DNA of 64,000 bases from assembly GCA_963821395.1 (NCBI GenBank), contig CAWGDY010000042.1, positions 41,263-105,262 on the forward strand, read 5' to 3'. Shown here one piece after another: positions 6,545-14,542 of the stretch; the stretch's first letter is position 1; each line of letters begins with the position of its first letter. The DNA comes from Vicinamibacterales bacterium. GTDB taxonomy: Bacteria; Acidobacteriota; Vicinamibacteria; Vicinamibacterales; JAMQPK01. Made by a program: the position numbers and the translations under genes. The notes under the pieces were generated by a model that ran no database searches, had not been told where the DNA came from, and saw only the letters and a list, made by a program, of their open reading frames with translations.

Positions 6545-7595
6545 AGATCGCCTCACCAGCGTTGCGGTAAAGAGTCGCGCGCGCGAGCTCGGATTCGAGC
6601 TGTGCGGCGTCGCTCCCGCGGAAGCCTTTCCCGAGCTCGGGTTCTTCAAGCAGTGGATTGCGAAAGGCTACGCCGGCACGATGGGGTACCTCCCCCGATC
6701 GGCCGAGCGGCGCGCCGACGTGCGCAATGTCATACCGACGGCGCGCTCGGTGATCGTCGTCGGCGCGCTCTACAACACCGGCGAGCCGTATTCGATCGAG
6801 CGTCACGATCCCGAGCGCGGGGAAGTGGCGCGCTATGCCTGGAGCCGCGACTACCACGACGTGCTGGGTGAGCGCCTCGATGCGCTTCTTGCCTGGATGA
6901 GAGGGCAGCATCCGGAACCCTTCGATGCACGCGCCTATGTCGACACCGGACCGGTGCAGGAGCGTGTGTACGCGCAGTACGCGGGCGTCGGTTGGATTGG
7001 CAAGAACACGTGCGTGATCAATCCCGATCTCGGGTCGTGGCTGCTGCTGGGCACGATCGTCTGCAGCCTGCCGCTCGAGGCCGACTCGCCCTCGCTCGAT
7101 CAGTGCGGCACGTGCACGCTCTGTCTCGAGGCCTGTCCCACTGGTGCCTTTGCGGCGCCGCATGTGCTGGACGCGACCCGGTGCATCTCGTATCTCACCA
7201 TCGAGTACCGCGGCTCGATTCCCGAAGGGCAGCGCGAGGCGATTGGTAACCATCTCTTCGGCTGCGACGTCTGTCAGGAAGTCTGCCCGTTCAACGCAAC
7301 GCCTGTTGATGCTGTGAAGCCGTCGTGGTCTTCGCGCGACGATCTGAATGGTCAGCAGTTGGTCGATCTCTGGAGCAGAAGCGACGCCGAGCTTGCCGTG
7401 TTCATCGGGGACACGGCCATGACGCGCGCCGGAGTCCGTGGCCTGCGGCGGAATCTTGCCGTGGCATTGGGCAATTCCGGCGACCCGTCTGCGCTCGAAG
7501 TGCTTTCGGAAACCCAAACCACTGCCGACACACGAACGGATCCACTGGTCCTCCAGCATGTCGCCTGGGCGAAATCCAGATTGCGGCAGACATAG
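6504..7595 (+). CDS. queG: tRNA epoxyqueuosine(34) reductase
   Basis: 363 aa with ...RELGFELCGVAPAE..., the ferredoxin-type motifs CGTCTLCLEACPTGAF and LFGCDVCQEVCPFN, and CISYLTIE. The first ~14 codons overlap the right arm of REP B1, so the exact start is uncertain. Confidence 0.85.
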   Translation: MPEDSLRLGDSASKDRLTSVAVKSRARELGFELCGVAPAEAFPELGFFKQWIAKGYAGTMGYLPRSAERRADVRNVIPTARSVIVVGALYNTGEPYSIERHDPERGEVARYAWSRDYHDVLGERLDALLAWMRGQHPEPFDARAYVDTGPVQERVYAQYAGVGWIGKNTCVINPDLGSWLLLGTIVCSLPLEADSPSLDQCGTCTLCLEACPTGAFAAPHVLDATRCISYLTIEYRGSIPEGQREAIGNHLFGCDVCQEVCPFNATPVDAVKPSWSSRDDLNGQQLVDLWSRSDAELAVFIGDTAMTRAGVRGLRRNLAVALGNSGDPSALEVLSETQTTADTRTDPLVLQHVAWAKSRLRQT

Positions 7596-7767
7596 CAGAA
7601 TTCGCTATCGATTTGGCGGCCAATCTCGATCAGAAACTACACTCGCGCGCACCTACGCCACGTTTTCCAGAGGAATTCCGAAGGGCACCACTCTTGATTG
7701 TGCTTCCGGCAAGGGACGCTTGACCGACGACGGTATACTCCGGTCAGAGTCGCTGAAGGAGAGTCCG

Positions 7768-8376
7768 ATGGCTATCGATGAGGGGCGACTCGACTATCTG
7801 GAGCGCGCATTGGAGGATCGACGCCAGGACTTCACGGAATTGAAGGAGGCCGTTCGCCATCTTGAAGCAAAGATGGACGAGCGCTTCGCGAACGTCGATG
7901 TGCGGTTCCTCGGCATCGATAGCCGCTTTCTCGCCATTGAGCATCGATTGACGGCGCTCGATTCGAAGTTCGACGCGCTCGGGTCGAGGTTGGACGCGAG
8001 ATTCGACGCGTTCGGATCGAGATTCGACGGGCTGGAGTCGAAATTCGATGCGAAATTCACCGGGCTCGAGTCGAGATTTGACGCGAAATTCGACGCGCTC
8101 GAGTCAAAATTCGACGCGAAGTTCGATGGGGTCGAATCGAGATTCGCGACGAAATTCACCGGGCTCGGGTCGAAATTCGATGCGAAGTTCGCCGGGTTCG
8201 AGTCGAAATTCGATGGGAAGTCCGCCGGGCTCGAGTCGAAATTTGACGCGAAGTTCGAGGGGGTTCAGGGGCAGTTCCAGGCGATGCTGAAGAAGATGGA
8301 CAGCCAGTTTCGGTGGCTGGTCGGTATCCAGTTCGGTGTGTTGGTCACCGTGATCGGCGTGCTGCTGTCAAGCTGA
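7768..8376 (+). CDS. tail-anchored coiled-coil protein with tandem 11-residue (hendecad) FDAKFxGLESK repeats
   Basis: GAAGGAG lies a few nt upstream of ATG 7768 (MAIDEGRLDYLERALE...). The N-terminal part has heptad-spaced R/K-F, followed by about 8 hendecads (SKFDAKFTGLESRFDAKFDALESKFDAKFDGVESRF...). A single C-terminal TM segment (WLVGIQFGVLVTVIGVLLSS) follows. The ORF 7438..8376 upstream extension looks non-coding. Confidence 0.7.
   Translation: MAIDEGRLDYLERALEDRRQDFTELKEAVRHLEAKMDERFANVDVRFLGIDSRFLAIEHRLTALDSKFDALGSRLDARFDAFGSRFDGLESKFDAKFTGLESRFDAKFDALESKFDAKFDGVESRFATKFTGLGSKFDAKFAGFESKFDGKSAGLESKFDAKFEGVQGQFQAMLKKMDSQFRWLVGIQFGVLVTVIGVLLSS
7957..8280 (+). repeat. in-frame ~33-bp tandem repeat array encoding the hendecads
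   Basis: Units of the form tcgaaattcgatgcgaaattcaccgggctcgag recur with small variations across this interval. Confidence 0.75.
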
Positions 8377-8460
8377 CTTCACCGGGTATGTCCAGTAGGC
8401 AAAGCGGAGGCTGACAGTCCCGATCTAATCCGCACCGCCTGTTCGCCCAGCCCTCCCTGA

Positions 8461-8486
8461 GCGGGAAACCGGATCGAAGAGGGCCA
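8461..8486. repeat. orphan third copy of the 26-nt box GCGGGAARCCGGATCGAARAGGGCCA
   Basis: Near-identical to 9152-9177 and 9863-9888. Here no gene follows it on the minus strand. Confidence 0.7.
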
Positions 8487-8521
8487 GGGGGACGGAGGGC
8501 TTAAGGCTGAGGGCTTAAGGG

Positions 8522-9103
8522 CTAAGGGCTGTTCCCACCCTTCGGACGCGCACGAATCATCGCCGCTTGGCTGGGCTCGAATGTGAGGCTGCCAGTTGCG
8601 GCGAGCATCGCCTGATGGTTGTCCCAGCCCGCCTTCATGAGCCCGGCCGCAGTGTGCGAGCCGTACGGCAACAAGAGGTGTCCCATCTCGTGTGCCATGA
8701 CGTGACCCAGCACCTGCGACACCTCGGGGTGGAATAGCCGTGCGAGATCATCTATGCGATCGAAGAACAGCCTGGCGACTCGTCCGCGTGCATCCTTCGA
8801 CCCCGGCGCAGAGCCAAGGATGTTCGGATTGCCATTCCAGCCGTTCGGAGTCGTCACGATTTGGATGATCAGCGAACCTGCCGGCGGCTCCTGAGTCGAC
8901 AGCCACACCAAAGAGATGCCGGCAGCTGCGAAGATCCGCTGGGCTTCCTGTTGCGTCCGGCTTAGCGCGTCGGTCGGCAGATGCACTTCATCATGGAGAA
9001 GCACTGAGACGGCCGGCGAGTTGGATGTCTGGGCCCCCGCATTGGTCCAGGCCGTCAGCCCGACAAACAGCGCCACCGTGGCGATCCAGCTCGCCCGGCC
9101 CAT
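8522..9103 (-). CDS. small secreted HExxH protein (minimal metzincin-like), paralog 1
   Basis: 193 aa. Signal peptide MGRASWIATVALFVGLTAWTNAGAQ, then HVMAHEMGHLLLPYGSH followed by AAGLMKAGW (HExxH, a third His, and a possible Met-turn). Strong SD GGGAGGGGGA upstream. Confidence 0.7.
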   Translation of the reverse strand: MGRASWIATVALFVGLTAWTNAGAQTSNSPAVSVLLHDEVHLPTDALSRTQQEAQRIFAAAGISLVWLSTQEPPAGSLIIQIVTTPNGWNGNPNILGSAPGSKDARGRVARLFFDRIDDLARLFHPEVSQVLGHVMAHEMGHLLLPYGSHTAAGLMKAGWDNHQAMLAATGSLTFEPSQAAMIRARPKGGNSP

Positions 9104-9177
9104 CGCGTCCCCCTCCCGGGGGCCGGGTCAATCCCGGCCGTGAACAGGGAGGCGGGAAGCCGGATCGAAGAGGGCCA
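9104..9177 (-). promoter_or_regulatory. conserved structured 5' leader of HExxH paralog 1
   Basis: 26-nt box at 9152-9177, then a 7-bp stem GGCCGGG/CCCGGCC (9121-9127 / 9133-9139, 5-nt loop) next to the SD. The same layout occurs upstream of paralog 2. Confidence 0.45.
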
Positions 9178-9214
9178 GCAGGAATTGGGGCCTGGCGATG
9201 GTTCGTGTTTCTCG

Positions 9215-9814
9215 TCAGTTGCCCGACGACGTTTCCCGCAGCCGCGCACGGATCAACGCGGCCTGACTCGGCTCGAATGTCAGGCTGCCCGTCGAGGCGA
9301 GAAGGGCTTGCTTCGTGTCCCAGCCGGCCTTCATGAGTCCAGTGACGGCATGCCCGCCATACGGCAGCAGGAGATGACCCATTTCGTGCGCCATGACGTG
9401 GCCGAGCAACTGCGAGACTTCGAGATTCAACGTCTGACCCAAATCATCAATCCGCGGGTAGAAGAGCCACGCAACCTTGCCGCGCACTTCCTTCGATCCC
9501 GGCGCGATGCCGAGCACGTTGCGATTCTTGGCCTTATCACCGATCGAATTCGCGACGATCTTGACGACGAGCTTGATGACCATCGAATCAGGCGGTGGCG
9601 CCTGGGCTGGAAGCCACGACAACGTGATGCCCGCGCGCTCGAAGAGTCGGCTGGCTTCGTCTTGCGCGTAGTGCAGCGTGCTGGCTGGAATCCCGACCTC
9701 GTCGAGGACCAGGACGTGGATGGTGAGTTGCTCCGACGTCCCGGCCGCGACGTCGGCCGAACCCGTCAGCACCCCGAAGAGCAGCGCGCCTGCGATCCAA
9801 CCCGTCCGGCCCAT
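9215..9814 (-). CDS. small secreted HExxH protein (minimal metzincin-like), paralog 2
   Basis: Start ATG at 9814 (MGRTGWIAGALLFGVLTGSADVAAG), inside ORF 9215..9889. Same HVMAHEMGHLLLPYGGH...GLMKAGW core and same C-terminal LTFEPSQAA(L/M)IRAR motif as paralog 1. Confidence 0.7.
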   Translation of the reverse strand: MGRTGWIAGALLFGVLTGSADVAAGTSEQLTIHVLVLDEVGIPASTLHYAQDEASRLFERAGITLSWLPAQAPPPDSMVIKLVVKIVANSIGDKAKNRNVLGIAPGSKEVRGKVAWLFYPRIDDLGQTLNLEVSQLLGHVMAHEMGHLLLPYGGHAVTGLMKAGWDTKQALLASTGSLTFEPSQAALIRARLRETSSGN

Positions 9815-9888
9815 CTCGTCCTCCTCCGGGGGGCCGGGTGAATCCCGGCCGTGAACCGGGAGGCGGGAAACCGGATCGAAAAGGGCCA
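9815..9888 (-). promoter_or_regulatory. conserved structured 5' leader of HExxH paralog 2
   Basis: 26-nt box at 9863-9888 and stem GGCCGGG/CCCGGCC at 9831-9837 / 9843-9849. The stem is identical to paralog 1, and the loop differs by one base. Confidence 0.45.
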
Positions 9889-9902
9889 CGGACCCCGAAA
9901 CA

Positions 9903-9937
9903 GGGATTGGGGATTGGGGATTCGGGATTAGGGATTA
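9903..9937. repeat. heptanucleotide microsatellite (GGGATTR)5
   Basis: GGGATTG GGGATTG GGGATTC GGGATTA GGGATTA. Related tracts lie at 10302-10320 and, in reverse complement, at 16472-16513. Confidence 0.9.
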
Positions 9938-10002
9938 GGGGGAGGAAAGGACCACGCCTGACAGGGAACGACGGATAGAATGGGCGCCGGCTCGGATAAC
10001 CG

Positions 10003-10320
10003 GTGCCTGATCTTCCCAACCCCGAAGTAACGGCGCTCCTCCTGGCATGGGGACACGGCGACGATGCAGCCTTCGACCGCCTGGTGCCGATGGTCCATGC
10101 CGAGCTGCGCCGCATTGCCCGCCGGCACATGGGACACGAGCGGGTGGGGCACACCCTTCGGCCGACCGCGCTCGTCAATGAGGCTTACCTCAAGCTGGTC
10201 GACGCCCGGCAAGTCAAATGGCAGGACCGTGCGCACTTTTTTGCGATGTCGTCGCGCTTCATGCGACAAGTCCTGGTCGACTGGGCGCAACAAAAAGAAG
10301 TGATTAGGGATTGGGGATGA
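10003..10320 (+). CDS. ECF-type sigma factor, truncated after region 2 (no sigma4 domain)
   Basis: GTG start, 105 aa. The segment ...FDRLVPMVHAELRRIARRHMGHERVGHTLRPTALVNEAYLKLVD...WQDRAHFFAMSSRFMRQVLVDWA matches the N-terminal two-thirds of TIGR02999/PF07638-type ECF sigmas. The ORF then ends in the heptamer repeat (…EVIRDWG*). Its TGA overlaps the kinase ATG (ATGA at 10317-10320). Confidence 0.7.
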   Translation: MPDLPNPEVTALLLAWGHGDDAAFDRLVPMVHAELRRIARRHMGHERVGHTLRPTALVNEAYLKLVDARQVKWQDRAHFFAMSSRFMRQVLVDWAQQKEVIRDWG

Positions 10321-13157
10321 GGAATAGCGACTGGCGGCGCGTCGAAGAGATCGTGCGGGCCGCGCGCGAGCGTGCGCCGCATGAGAGGCAGGGCTTTGTC
10401 CGCCAGGCGGCAGCTGGTGATGAGTCCTTGCGGATGGAAGTGGAATCGCTGCTGGAGAACGCCAACAGCCCGACTCCCTCCCCCTCAGTCGTACCACGAT
10501 TGAATCTGACAGGCAGACGCATCGGCGTCTACGAAGTCGGCGTCATGATCGGCGCCGGGGGCATGGGTGAAGTCTATCGGGCACGCGACACGAAGCTCGC
10601 GCGCGACGTCGCGTTCAAGGTCCTGCCGGGCGACTTGGCTTCTGATCCAGAGCGCCTCGCGAGGTTCCAACGCGAAGCCCGTGTCCTCGCCGCATTGAAT
10701 CACCCGCACATCGGCGCGATACACGGTTTCGAGGAGTCTTCCGGCGTTGTGGCGCTCGTGCTGGAGCTCATAGAGGGCCCGACCCTGGCTGAACGCATTG
10801 CGAGAGGGGCTCTCACGGTGGGCGATGCGCTGAAGATCGCGCGGCAGATCGCGGAGGCGCTGGATGCGGCTCATGAGAGAGGCGTCATCCATCGCGATCT
10901 GAAGCCCGCCAACATCAAGCTCACCTCAGACGGCCAGGTGAAAGTGCTCGACTTCGGCCTGGCGAAGTTCGCACGAGCGCCGAATCTCTCGCACGCGCCG
11001 CCAACCGAGACCCTGGCCACGAGCGAGGGCGCGATTTTCGGCACACCTTCTTACATGAGCCCCGAACAGGCGCGCGGTCTGGCCGTGGACAAGCGCACCG
11101 ACATCTGGGCGTTCGGATGCGTGCTTTACGAAATGTTGTGTGGGCGCGAAGCCTTCCCGGGCCGCACGCTGTCCGATCGCCTCGCAGCGGTCATCGAGCG
11201 GGAACCCGACTGGTCTCGATTGCCGGCCTCCACGCCCGACGCTGTGAGTCGCCTCGTCCGACGCTGTCTGGACAAAGACGCGAGCCACCGGCTTCGCGAC
11301 ATTGGCGACGCGTCGGAAGAACTCGCTGACATCGTCCACGAGCGCGTGCCCATCGTCGCGAAGCCGCGAAATATGGCTATGGATGGCCGGCGCGACCGTC
11401 ATTCTGATTGGCATCGCTGCTGGCGTTGTTGTCTTCTGGAAAGCATCCCCGACAGGTCGAACCAATTCGTCCGGTGCGATTTCTGCTGACACCGCCCAAA
11501 GGGTCACACCTTCGCGAATTCCGCGATTCCAACGTTTCAAATGTCGCGATTCCATCGCCCGACGGCCGCAATATTGTGTTTCGAGCCGCGACCGCGAGCG
11601 GCCAGTTCTCATTGTGGATTCAGGCTCTCGATTCCAATTCTGCGCGGCAGTTACCCGGAACCGAAGACGCGCTGTTTCCGTTCTGGTCGCCCGACGGTCG
11701 CTATGTTGCGTTTGGCGCAGGAGACACGCTGAAGAGAGTGCCCGTTGCCGGTGGCGAGGCTGAGATCATCACCGCGATCTCGAACGGTCCTCTTGGCGCG
11801 ACATGGAACAGCGACGGTGTGATCGTGCTGACGCCAGGTAATCAGCGAGGGTTGTATCGTGTCCGCGCCTCTGGCGGCACGGCGGAACCGCTGACGCAGT
11901 TGGACAAGACCCGATCGGAAAACTCGCATCGCTGGCCTCAATTTCTTCCCGACGGCGATCACTTTCTGTACACGGCCAGGTCCGATTCGCCGGAGAACAC
12001 GGGAATTTACGTGGGCTCGCTCGCTACCGGAGAACGCAAATGGCTGATGCCGGCGCAATCGGGGGCCAACTACGTGGCGCCCGGCCATCTGTTGTGGGTG
12101 CGTGACGGGACGTTGCTGGCCCAGCCGTTCCGCCTCGACACGTTCGAGTTGACCGGCGACGCGACGGCGATCGCCGCAGACGTGACACATGTCAGGGCAG
12201 GCGCGTTCGGATCTTTCTCGGCTTCAGACGACGGCAGCGTTGTGTCTTACACCGTGAGCCAGTCCGATCGGAGACGCCTCCAGTGGTTCGATCGTTCGGG
12301 AAAAGCCGTTGGTCAGGCGATCGCAGAAGGAGACTTTGGCCAGTTGCGCCTCGATCCGTCAGGGAGTCGGGCGGTGGTTTACCGTCCGAGCAAAGAAGAC
12401 GGAAGCCGGGACATCTGGACGATCGACCTGGCGACTGGAGCGCAGACGCGGATCAGCTCGTCTCCTTCGAATGACTGGTATCCCACATGGTCGCCAGACG
12501 GTACGCACATTCTTTACCTGTCTGAAAGGAATGGCGCATCCGAGTTCTATTTGAGAGCGGCAGATGGCTCAGGGGAAGAGAAGCTCGTCTGGTCGGTTAC
12601 AGGAAGTGCGATTCCCGACTGACTGGTCGCGCGATGGCCAACGTATCGCGTTCTATGCGAATGCCGACTTCACAGACGAGCGGCGTTTCGATCTCTGGAT
12701 TCTTCCGTTGCCATGGGGAGCGAAGCCGACGCGCATATCATCACGGACGCCATTTGTCTGAATGGACGGGGCGTTTTTCGCCCGATGGTCGTTGGCTCGC
12801 GTACTCGTCGAACGACTCCGGCACTGAAGAGGTGTACGTGCGCGCTCTCGATGGAGAAAGCGCGCCAACGTATTTCGCTGAAAGGGCGGAATGCAGCCGA
12901 TCTGGACGCGCGACGGAAAGGAGTTGCTGTACCTGGCGCCGGGCAGTCAGTTGATGTCCGCAGCCATGACGCCGGTGGAGACTTCGACTCGATCCGCGAA
13001 ACGATTGTTCGTTGCCTGCGGCGAACCTTCGGAGTCGTATTACCAGCTATTCGACGTGTCGCCGGACGGGTTACGAACACTGTGGTTGTGTTCGCCGCCG
13101 CAGGAAGCCTCGACGAACATGATCGCCATCGGGTGGTTGCAGCAGCTGCCGCATTAG
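10317..13157 (+). pseudogene. Ser/Thr protein kinase - TM - TolB-like beta-propeller, about six +1 frame breaks as assembled
   Basis: The kinase domain (GAGGMGEVYRARD, HRDLKPANIKL, DFGLAK, SYMSPEQ) is in ORF 10311..11489. The TM segment WLWMAGATVILIGIAAGVVVFW is in the next frame. The propeller repeats (SPDGRNIVF, WSPDGRYVAFG, WSPDGTHILY, FSPDGRWLAYSS, WTRDGKELLY) are spread over ORFs 11408.., 12564.., 12634.., 12713.. and 12891..13157. Confidence 0.75.
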
Positions 13158-13160
13158 GCG

Positions 13161-14088
13161 CTACGTCACATTCGTGATGACGTACTCCTCGACGATTCCT
13201 CGCCGCTCGGCGTTCGAGTTGATCGCCCGCCGCGCTGGTACTCGGTGGCAGCACAGGCCCGCGGCGCTCACTTGCAGGTTCCTTTCGTAGAGCTCCGCAA
13301 TCTCGGGTGCGGTCGAGTTGCTCATCACAACATGGCAGCCTCGATTCGCAAGCTCAACGAGCACCGTTCGCAGCGTCTCCTGGTCGTCCAGGCTGAATCC
13401 TTCGGCGGTGTAGTTGGTGAACCGTGCCGTCTTGCTCAGCGGCGCATACGGCGGATCGAAGTACAGGAAATCGCCTGCCCGTGCCCGTTCCAGGACGGTG
13501 GTGAATCGCGCCCTGCTCGAGCGCGACACTACTCCGCGCGAGCGCGGCTGAGACGAGGCGGATGTTTTCATCGTCGCAGATGCGCGGCTTCGAATACCGG
13601 CCCGCGGGGACGTTGAACTCGCCGGCCGAATTGAGCCGGAACAGTCCGTTGTACCCCGTCCGGTTCAGGTAGATGAACATCGCGGCGAGCGCCGGGCTGT
13701 AGCCGAGCTCTCCACCGTTGGCCGATGCCCGCAGCCGGGCGCGCTCTTTGTTGAATCGATTGTTCCGAATCTCGTAGTAGTGGTCGGTGCCTTTTCGCTC
13801 GTGATCGCGCGCGAGCCGGGTCAGCTCTCGAACGATCTCGTCGGGGAAGTCTCTGACCGCGCGATAACAGGCAATCAAGTCCGGATTGTGATCGGTGAGC
13901 GTCGCGCCGCCGCCGACGAGACCACGCGCGTGAAGATCGAAAAACACGGCAGCGCTGCCCAGGAAGGGCTCACAGTACCGGTTGAACTGCCTGGGATAGA
14001 AGCGCCGAAGCACCGGAAGAAGCTGGCGCTTGCCCCCGGCCCACTTCAACAACGGACGGGCGTGTGTATGTGGCGTGCCATCTGCCAT
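13161..14088 (-). CDS. Dam-family (D12 class) N6-adenine DNA methyltransferase, one +1 frame break as assembled
   Basis: The N-terminal motif PLLKWAGGKRQLLP...EPFLGSAAVFF is in ORF 13354..14157. The catalytic DPPY (FLYFDPPYAPLSK) is in ORF 13161..13571. The frames join at ~13535. The ATG at 14088 lies inside REP A2, so a TTG start about 30 nt downstream is also possible. Confidence 0.75.
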
Positions 14089-14177
14089 CTGCCGTGTGCC
14101 ATGGCGCGCTTCAGTCATCCGCCCTGACAGCGAAGCCTCCTCTTTGCCATCTGCCATGTGCCATCTGCCATGTCAGG
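14075..14177. repeat. REP-like element, family A, copy 2 (two arms in direct orientation)
   Basis: gtgccatctgccatctgccgtgtgccatgg at 14075-14104 and ttgccatctgccatgtgccatctgccatgtcagg at 14144-14177. Confidence 0.8.
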
Positions 14178-14188
14178 CGAAGTATGCG

Positions 14189-14542
14189 TTAGTGCCTTCG
14201 TCCCTCGGCCAGCCTCAAGCCGACCGCCATGCCGAGATGAAACGCGGCTTCCTGATTGAGCCACAGCTGCCGCGCCAGATTGTCGACCAGCTCCTCTATC
14301 AGTTCGTGTCCGTCTTCCCCGGTCAGTTCCTTCAACCGCTGGACGATCTCTTCCTGGCGCTGGACATCCGCGGGCGCAAACAGCTCATCGTCGTGTAACG
14401 CGTCGAGCAGTTCGTCGTACTCGGCCGCGCAATGCTCTTCGACGTCGCCAAAACTGGGATAGCGCACCTGCTTGTCCGGCATCTCGATGCGCTCCGCTCC
14501 CGCGCGCGCGATGTCCATGAGGTCGTCCGACGTGGCGCCCAT
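14189..14542 (-). CDS. hypothetical small acidic protein
   Basis: 117 aa, rich in D/E (…DVEEHCAAEYDELLDALHDDELFAPADVQRQEE…). Same strand as the methyltransferase and immediately upstream of it. I recognise no family. Confidence 0.5.
   Translation of the reverse strand: MGATSDDLMDIARAGAERIEMPDKQVRYPSFGDVEEHCAAEYDELLDALHDDELFAPADVQRQEEIVQRLKELTGEDGHELIEELVDNLARQLWLNQEAAFHLGMAVGLRLAEGRRH

Follow-up and report, generated by a model that had tools for sequence, protein, structure and literature searches.

The gene considered here lies in a 64,000-nucleotide (nt) stretch of contig CAWGDY010000042.1 (positions 41,263 to 105,262 of the forward strand; hereafter the window) from assembly GCA_963821395.1 of a Vicinamibacterales bacterium. 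An ATG at 7768 is the start codon of an open reading frame (ORF) that runs to 8376 on the plus strand. Its 202-amino-acid (aa) product consists of a charged N-terminal module, a Phe-rich repeat array and a C-terminal transmembrane (TM) helix. The features of the gene are as follows.

7768-8376, plus strand: coding sequence, including the stop codon, of the tail-anchored coiled-coil protein P0001, 202 aa (from the ORF, its translation, orthologs and the ratio of nonsynonymous to synonymous substitution rates, dN/dS)
7756-7763, plus strand: Shine-Dalgarno-like sequence AAGGAGAG, read in the sequence 5' of the ATG
7768-7956, plus strand: N-terminal module, residues 1-63 (MAIDEGRLDYLERALEDRRQDF..RF..RF..RF), charged and heptad-like, of equal length in all orthologs examined
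7957-8295, plus strand: variable repeat region, residues 64-176, comprising two heptads, eight hendecads and the junction to the C-terminal module (unit parsing, Tandem Repeats Finder)
8029-8259, plus strand: seven in-register hendecads, residues 88-164, consensus GLESKFDAKFx (position-wise composition)
8200-8232, plus strand: defective hendecad GFESKFDGKSA, residues 145-155, in which a core Phe is replaced by Ser (unit parsing, AlphaFold2)
8296-8373, plus strand: C-terminal module, residues 177-202 (MDSQFRWLVGIQFGVLVTVIGVLLSS), with the TM helix at about residues 183-200, nt 8314-8367 (alignment, weak XhlA match)

This is a genuine, conserved gene under purifying selection. Orthologs of 180 aa each are found in two genomes of the same genus (G006, 84% identity; G018, 72% identity), and further ones on metagenome contigs (P0002-P0006, P0125). 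The gene queG sits directly 5' on the same strand in the window, in G006 and G018, both Vicinamibacterales metagenome-assembled genomes (MAGs; phylum Acidobacteriota), and on two metagenome contigs. When computed on the non-repetitive parts, i.e. the 63-codon N-terminal and 26-codon C-terminal modules, dN/dS was 0.08-0.18 at dS values of 0.2-0.67 for four orthologs. Length differences between orthologs are all in frame, in multiples of three and with the register kept, and the paralogs carry GGAG or GGGAG at the place of the Shine-Dalgarno sequence. Because the same modules and the same repeat type recur in orthologs under purifying selection, the repeats are not a product of chance.

Could there nevertheless be no gene here, merely an open frame produced by a GC-rich tandem DNA repeat? 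The repeat does open two further frames, 7794-8159 (minus strand, 121 aa) and 8048-8290 (plus strand, 80 aa). This explanation is, however, effectively refuted by the low dN/dS of the end modules, the intact register across indels, the presence of both a Shine-Dalgarno sequence and a family-specific upstream motif, and an architecture common to thousands of homologs. The two additional frames yield Ser/Asn/Arg-rich products, which are other-frame translations of the 33-bp repeat; they are very probably not genes but its by-products.

A previous reading of this locus, made from the sequence only, described an N-terminal segment with heptad spacing, an array of Phe-rich 11-residue repeats whose number could vary and a single C-terminal TM helix. 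All of these stood up to analysis. In the N-terminal module, RF occurs at residues 39-40, 46-47 and 53-54, which places F40, F47 and F54 at 7-residue steps. The array that follows begins with the units LDSKFD, ALGSRLDARFD and AFGSRFD and continues with the seven in-register hendecads, in the order GLESKFDAKFT, GLESRFDAKFD, ALESKFDAKFD, GVESRFATKFT, GLGSKFDAKFA, GFESKFDGKSA and GLESKFDAKFE, so that eight hendecads are counted in all. Phe occupies position a in all seven and position e in six of them, with Leu, Val or Phe at h; Lys is found at d, Lys or Arg at k, Glu at i and Asp at b, and Gly, Ala and Ser form the rear face. Between residues 82 and 148 the Phe residues are spaced alternately by 4 and 7, with the exception of a 3-4 step at F141-F144-F148. 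On the DNA level, the array is picked up by Tandem Repeats Finder as a 33-bp repeat at 8023-8257 (7.1 copies, 78% matches), and the mean identity among the seven hendecad units of the window is 79%. G006 shows no defect corresponding to that of the unit GFESKFDGKSA.

The hydrophobic periodicity peaks at 3.65 residues over residues 63-170, where 11/3 equals 3.67, and at about 3.55 over residues 1-65. Over the same 63-170 region the hydrophobic resultant is 0.87 on an 11/3 wheel versus 0.21 on a 7/2 wheel. AlphaFold2, run as a single chain with the family alignment, predicts helices at residues 5-144 and 156-201 with a mean predicted local distance difference test score (pLDDT) of 87, as would be expected of an all-helical rod. 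The 11/3 hydrophobic periodicity extends over several turns of the first of these helices, one of the features that define a hendecad coiled coil. With the seven hendecads placed on the 11/3 wheel, Leu (h), Phe (a) and Phe (e) fall at -33, 0 and +33 degrees. One side of this stripe is lined by Lys at -65 and Lys/Arg at -98 degrees, the opposite side by Glu (+65 degrees) and Asp (+98 degrees); Gly, Ala, Ser and a variable residue make up the back. The apolar stripe is thus three positions, or 65 degrees, wide; hydrophobic residues make up 26%, with a hydrophobic moment of 0.205 and a mean hydrophobicity of -0.06. Such a narrow stripe between a basic and an acidic flank is a pattern that would favour parallel helices bridging flank to flank. 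The same wheel disposes of an earlier concern, namely that a conserved Gly, found in six of the seven in-register hendecads, is odd for a coiled coil: this residue sits on the outer face, not in the core, and is kept in relatives from other phyla.

The C-terminal module carries an uncharged 18-residue helix, WLVGIQFGVLVTVIGVLL (residues 183-200), with just two residues after it. W183 never varies in the family alignment (A1), the conservation of G186 is 90% or more, and a Gln or Glu is found three residues past the G186 column in 16 of 23 family members. Charged residues flank the helix on its N-terminal side (K175, K176, R182) and are absent after it; the N terminus, MAIDEGRLDYLERALEDRRQ, is charged and helical and has no signal peptide. 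The protein therefore has a single TM helix at its extreme C terminus and no N-terminal signal sequence, as defined for the tail-anchored class (PMC6389858). Since positive charges are confined to the region before the TM helix and a signal peptide is missing, the rod should be cytoplasmic, with an N-in topology. The conserved Gly and Gln could extend an oligomer into the membrane.

While the end modules are constant among orthologs, the repeat region between them is not. It measures 113 aa in the window, 91 in both G006 and G018, 51 in P0002, 44 in P0003 and 29 in P0005, and the differences are combinations of 7, 11 and 4 residues. P0002 and P0003 have identical N-terminal modules and yet differ by seven residues in their repeat regions. 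Two neighbouring 33-nt units of G006 match each other at 100%, and its five units average 91% identity, compared with the 79% of the window. Given these near-identical units and the unequal lengths, it appears that the array is still being remodelled by unit duplication and that the window holds its longest and a rather old version. A separate observation concerns P0004 (L007 6001-6525), in which the frame continues past the TM helix into a tail resembling the C terminus of QueG (..DPLVIEHVHWAMRKLADARE..); the tail stems either from a frameshift error in the long-read assembly or from the queG 3' end having been duplicated locally.

Two elements upstream of the gene bear on its control.

7720-7739, plus strand: invariant 20-nt motif TTGACCGACGACGGTATACT, ending 28 nt before the ATG
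7684-7698, plus strand: sigma-54-like -24/-12 element GGCAC-N5-TTGAT (by spacing and recurrence near the motif)

The 20-nt motif, of the general form TTGACnGACGACG[GC]TATACT, was noticed through LTDDGIL, a translated upstream sequence that recurs in the gene calls of orthologs and of one paralog because the underlying DNA is conserved. Although LTDDGIL was called as part of the protein in P0002, P0003 and P0006, the motif is out of frame with the gene at the paralog C16b and is therefore not coding. In the 5.69-Mb genome to which the window belongs, the motif occurs four times at up to 2 mismatches, always preceding a family paralog, with 24-29 nt between it and the start codon, and a hidden Markov model (HMM) search likewise finds four family members there: the window gene on C42, one on C3 and two on C16. 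A search of 41 related genomes returned 17 sites in 11 of the 25 genomes of the genus and none in the 16 other genera; a reversed control pattern gave 0 matches. Among 18 loci around motif sites (L050-L067, some of which overlap), 16 contain a family member, some of them frameshifted in long-read MAGs. We regard a dedicated control element common to the paralogs as well established.

As for the second element, GGCAY-N5-nTG[CA]T is found 31-36 nt upstream of the motif in 11 of the 17 instances, against a genome-wide frequency of 7e-5 per position; several paralog lineages have GGCAY-N5-nTGCT at a fixed distance from the motif, and rpoN is encoded in the genome. We consider the odds that this is a sigma-54 promoter to be about even. 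A simple scan for a sigma-70 promoter and terminator found nothing. Since the four paralogs share the motif and a probable sigma-54-type promoter, they are likely to be switched on together. In an alignment of five orthologous intergenic regions (window 7540-7767), GGGCAyCrCTCTTGAT (7683-7698) is almost invariant, and the sequence between it and the 20-nt motif varies. The motif itself is bracketed by an inverted repeat, GCGGCTT...GAGCCGC, and a sigma-54 start would fall just before this repeat. As RNA, the stem GCGGCUU/GAGCCGC pairs in 90% of cells, with one compensatory change (GCGAC/GUCGC), and the window copy pairs poorly; the covariation is not significant, as 66 of 500 shuffles reach the observed level. 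Rfam gave nothing credible in 7300-8700.

To what family does the protein belong? No Pfam or NCBIfam model reaches its cut-off, the matches being of the compositional coiled-coil kind. The matches below cut-off are these.

Apolipoprotein (Pfam PF01442): 27.6 bits, E 2.8e-6, cut-off 90; the best-scoring Pfam match
DUF7310 (PF23991): 26.1 bits, cut-off 40; residues 6-72
Gp58: 24.9 bits, cut-off 34.5
XhlA (PF10779), TM part only: 17.9 bits, E 0.0035, cut-off 34.7; residues 173-199, profile positions 40-66 of 67

DUF7310 also matches 14 of 23 family members at E <= 0.01 (best E 2.9e-8, not compared with the cut-off). An exhaustive HMMER search returned 3,369 cluster representatives at E <= 0.001, much of this through the repeat. 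Within them, P0147, P0225, P0249, P0022, P0198, P0239 and P0163 make up a coherent family with both end modules. Its N-terminal pattern is M-x-[ST]-[VLI]-[ED]-E-R-[VL]-x-Y-L-E-G...E-[LI]-R-[ED]-x-[VI]...L-[ED]-x-[KR]-[MV]-D-x-R-F, and in the form M..[ED]ER..YLEG..EL[RK]E.V..L..KMD.RF it is common to the window protein and the distant P0147, P0225, P0249 and P0022; the C-terminal pattern is [QH]-F-x-W-[LV]-[VL]-G-[IV]-Q...L[VL]..[IV]G.LL. Between these ends the relatives carry heptads (IDRRFEA), hendecads (LDAKFSTKIEE, LESKLDNKIDA, LEHKFDTKIDS) or mixtures. Related loci occur, among other taxa, in Solirubrobacterales, Pseudomonadales, cyanobacteria, Aeromonas, Terriglobia, Eremiobacterota, Hyphomicrobiales and Rhodobacterales, and the newer Pfam accessions PF27276 and PF27742 are listed for relatives. 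Sequence comparison places the window protein in a large family, uncurated and spread over many phyla, whose members are small coiled-coil proteins with a tail anchor.

The array had been called unrecognisable, and this part of the sequence-only reading does not hold. Among 219 homologs of 90-350 aa, a sample biased by having been picked for similarity to a hendecad query, the dominant lag is 11 residues in 96, 7 in 58 and 18 in 32, and GLE.KFD.KF. hendecad arrays are frequent, also in the DUF1640-headed P0009 and P0037. What sets the window copy apart is degree: no retrieved copy is longer or richer in Phe (13.2%, versus a 95th percentile of 10.4% in that sample), and its count of F-F hendecads is extreme as well. 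The list of matches is swollen by P0122 (1344 aa), in which well over 100 copies of the heptad ILDSRFS lie between unrelated low-complexity flanks; it has the look of a 21-bp DNA satellite in translation, not of a true relative. Phage matches obtained by tblastn were mostly tape-measure proteins and were rejected as generic coiled-coil similarity.

The architecture had been likened to that of XhlA-like and DUF1640-like proteins, and these are indeed the nearest recognisable relatives, though with matches only below threshold. The DUF1640/CCDC90-like family (PF07798; MCUR1 and CCDC90B in mitochondria, with many bacterial homologs) likewise combines a coiled-coil stalk with a C-terminal TM anchor, and its bacterial members P0009, P0010 and P0037 have GLE.KFD.KF. 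hendecads and heptads as in the window, again in variable number. DUF1640-headed homologs were retrieved at E 1e-25 to 1e-11; in P0007, P0009, P0010 and P0037 the DUF1640 head and an LTK.DL motif are followed by GLE.KFD.KF. repeats and a TM anchor. The window protein differs in lacking the head (IDTLRFADRLKEAGF...) seen in P0007, P0009 and P0010: PF07798 does not match it in a Pfam scan even at E <= 10, and its N-terminal 63-aa module is of a type unlike the DUF1640 head. A beta-layer motif, [aliphatic]-[AT]-T-K-x-[DE], marks the start of the DUF1640 stalk (PMC4786415). The DUF1640-headed homologs have LTK.DL or LTR.D at this head-to-stalk junction, and the beta-layer motif was not found in the 202-aa window sequence. 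Beta-layers are not known outside trimers. A literature search found nothing joining hendecads with tail anchoring, nor CCDC90B with trimers.

Other comparisons are instructive in the same way. XhlA (PF10779), associated with lysis by the PBSX prophage of Bacillus subtilis, is a small protein as well, in which a coiled coil at the N terminus is followed by a TM helix at the C terminus, and its model matches 4 of 23 family members at E <= 0.01. The likeness is weak and limited to the TM helix, whereas the window stalk is much longer and repetitive, and no phage lysis cassette (holin, endolysin) or prophage was found around the gene in the window or around its orthologs. ElaB/YqjD/YgaM (DUF883), the best-studied bacterial tail-anchored proteins, resemble the window protein in having a cytoplasmic helical part and a C-terminal TM helix, no signal peptide and several paralogs per genome, and their expression is stress-controlled. 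They differ in being non-repetitive, much shorter and controlled by RpoS and OxyR, not by a 20-nt motif, and DUF883 is absent from the Pfam hits of the window protein at E <= 10. The stalks of trimeric autotransporter adhesins (SadA; PMC4786415) show the 3.67-residue periodicity, heptad-hendecad transitions and variable arrays seen in the window; unlike it, they are extracellular and anchored by a beta-barrel, with a mostly aliphatic core, where the window protein has Phe at two of three core positions. Finally, the 11/22-mers of apolipoproteins A-I, A-IV and E (PF01442) are tandem 11-residue helical repeats too, but the window protein has a narrow apolar stripe with asymmetric charge flanks and is membrane-anchored and bacterial. 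The architecture as such is already known from DUF1640, XhlA and ElaB-type proteins, and hendecad stalks are well understood. Judged on these profile searches, the window branch falls outside each of the named families and is uncurated. Two observations are new: the graded repeat-region lengths of the orthologs, and the 20-nt motif that the family members have in common.

With moderate confidence, we propose that the gene encodes a tail-anchored inner-membrane protein with a cytoplasmic, parallel, in-register coiled-coil stalk, co-regulated with its three paralogs. The cytoplasmic part of about 180 residues would be a single unbroken alpha-helix, several copies of which come together in the stalk. 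Because each chain is tethered through its C-terminal end, the assembly would be parallel and in register. As to the oligomeric state, we infer that the stalk is most likely a trimer, with dimer to tetramer possible; the trimer is our first guess because DUF1640-headed stalks share the repeat type and have the beta-layer motif, and because the top matches of a PDB profile search are trimeric fibres (the SadA fragment 2yo3 at the top, then HA2, sigma-1 and gp26; none above cut-off). The switch from heptads to hendecads would leave most of the rod nearly straight, with Phe at a and e and Leu at h in the core and with bridges from the Lys flank (d, k) of one helix to the Glu/Asp flank (i, b) of the next, while the conserved W-x-x-G-I-Q helix would serve as membrane anchor. 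The count of 7- and 11-residue units, which changes fast between relatives, would set the rod length, about 25 nm in the window protein and about 13 nm in P0005 for an assumed rise of 1.5 Å per residue. The four paralogs would be switched on together by a specific signal. Our guess for the cellular role is a membrane-proximal scaffold, tether or spacer under some stress.

Several observations weigh against this proposal. AlphaFold2 breaks the helix at the defective hendecad, which is the sole non-helical stretch of the model (pLDDT about 50). A Foldseek search with the model against PDB gave 0 matches; the null is uninformative, though, because the model is a single long helix. The PDB sequence matches to trimeric fibres may reflect coiled-coil composition alone. 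In addition, the genomic context offers no clue to the role, because no partner gene is conserved next to family members at the loci compared. Regarding the promoter, sigma-54 recognises GG at -24 and GC at -12 with the spacing TGGCAC-N5-TTGCW; the -12 part in the window lineage reads TTGAT (GA), not the consensus TTGC (GC). Alternatively, TATACT within the 20-nt motif may serve as a -10 box, in which case TTGACnGACGAC would be an operator.

The sequence-only reading had also raised the possibility that the repeats are amphipathic 11-mers binding lipid surfaces, of the apolipoprotein, perilipin, synuclein and late embryogenesis abundant (LEA) type. In that case the rod would lie flat along the cytoplasmic membrane face or over a lipid or polyhydroxyalkanoate (PHA) body, its Phe stripe inserted, and would protect or remodel that surface. 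The 11/3 periodicity fits this idea, aromatic residues favour the membrane interface, desiccation stress is plausible for a soil bacterium, and there are sub-threshold Apolipoprotein matches in the window protein and 12 of 23 family members, along with weak phasin and PspA matches. Yet the Apolipoprotein score of the window protein is far under its cut-off, and the geometry does not fit: the apolar face covers only three positions, the hydrophobic moment is low, and Lys is on one flank with the acids on the other. Class A lipid-binding helices, by comparison, have Lys on both flanks and acids on the far face. Furthermore, DUF1640-headed proteins build their stalk from the identical type of repeat. 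Taken together, we regard lipid-surface binding as unlikely.

We give equally little credence to a membrane disruptor of XhlA-like or effector-like kind, i.e. a lysis helper, toxin or abortive-infection effector whose coiled coil would drive oligomerisation of the TM helix into a lesion. Such a function would suit the weak XhlA match in the TM part of the window protein and of 4 of 23 members, the phage-derived profiles (PHROG 6701, function unknown, matches 8 of 8 members scanned from stalk to C terminus with E down to 1e-16, and phrog_1193, a phage 'hemolysin', matches P0147) and the setting of two distant relatives, one encoded just downstream of cI in Mannheimia prophages, the other flanked by toxin-antitoxin genes on a Zymomonas plasmid. 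A weak lead is the PADLOC 'CorA-like' model, which matches the heptad-type relatives P0147 (E 8e-7) and P0225 (E 6e-5); it does not match the window protein itself. The XhlA score is half of its cut-off, however, and no holin, endolysin, phage, integrase or defence gene lies near the window gene. Nor would this explanation lead one to expect strong purifying selection, or four paralogs on the chromosome that have a regulatory motif in common.

A bolder version of the stalk proposal, which we think quite improbable, may still be spelled out: a sigma-54-dependent, leader-motif-controlled regulon of the four paralogs, producing straight Phe-zipper stalks that rise from the cytoplasmic membrane face and whose Gly/Ala/Ser back stripes would let neighbours pack laterally into a submembrane palisade or lattice, its height tuned by 7- and 11-residue units. 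If true, this palisade would give the cell a submembrane layer or spacer that is induced by stress and adjustable in thickness, a kind of structure that has not been described in bacteria.

The locus holds no surprise and leaves current ideas intact; it is an unknown, but a well-defined one. Bacterial genomes abound in small tail-anchored coiled-coil proteins, and almost none of the ~3,400 cluster representatives matched has a known role. The locus makes a convenient study case, having conserved end modules, length steps of 7 and 11 residues and a core that is two-thirds phenylalanine, and for the structural biology of coiled coils its regular F-F-L hendecad lends itself as a model of a nearly untwisted bundle with an aromatic core. 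The 20-nt motif marks the paralogs of the genus as one set that is likely to be co-regulated; the factor or signal behind it could reveal the role of the family.

In the window the gene has queG upstream and two secreted HExxH proteins downstream. All-against-all BLAST of ORFs at 34 and then 18 loci revealed no neighbour gene conserved across lineages and only lineage-specific synteny; the contigs of distant relatives are too short to show context. When window 8400-14500 is compared with G006, where an ankyrin-repeat ORF comes after the gene, with a Dam-type methyltransferase immediately behind it (L009 2072-3494), the methyltransferase lies about 4.8 kb further on in the window. A block made of the two HExxH proteins, an extracytoplasmic function (ECF) sigma gene and a Ser/Thr kinase is missing or replaced in G006, and the HExxH pair is kept in G018.

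Farther afield, one distant relative is found on a Zymomonas plasmid among toxin-antitoxin genes. Another, a hypothetical protein of 161 aa in the Mannheimia phage vB_MhS_535AP2 (L048 2743-3228), shows weak likeness to the N-terminal part of the query and is encoded two genes downstream of the cI repressor, a prophage position often taken by exclusion or conversion genes. Within the genome of the window, the two paralogs on contig C16 (L002 16-1839, minus strand), of 100 and 108 aa when counted from ATG, each lie behind a copy of the 20-nt motif; for the first, the ORF call gives 115 aa from an upstream TTG. They flank a two-gene unit whose products look like YeeE/YedE-type sulfur-transport membrane proteins, with a GGCTSGHG motif.

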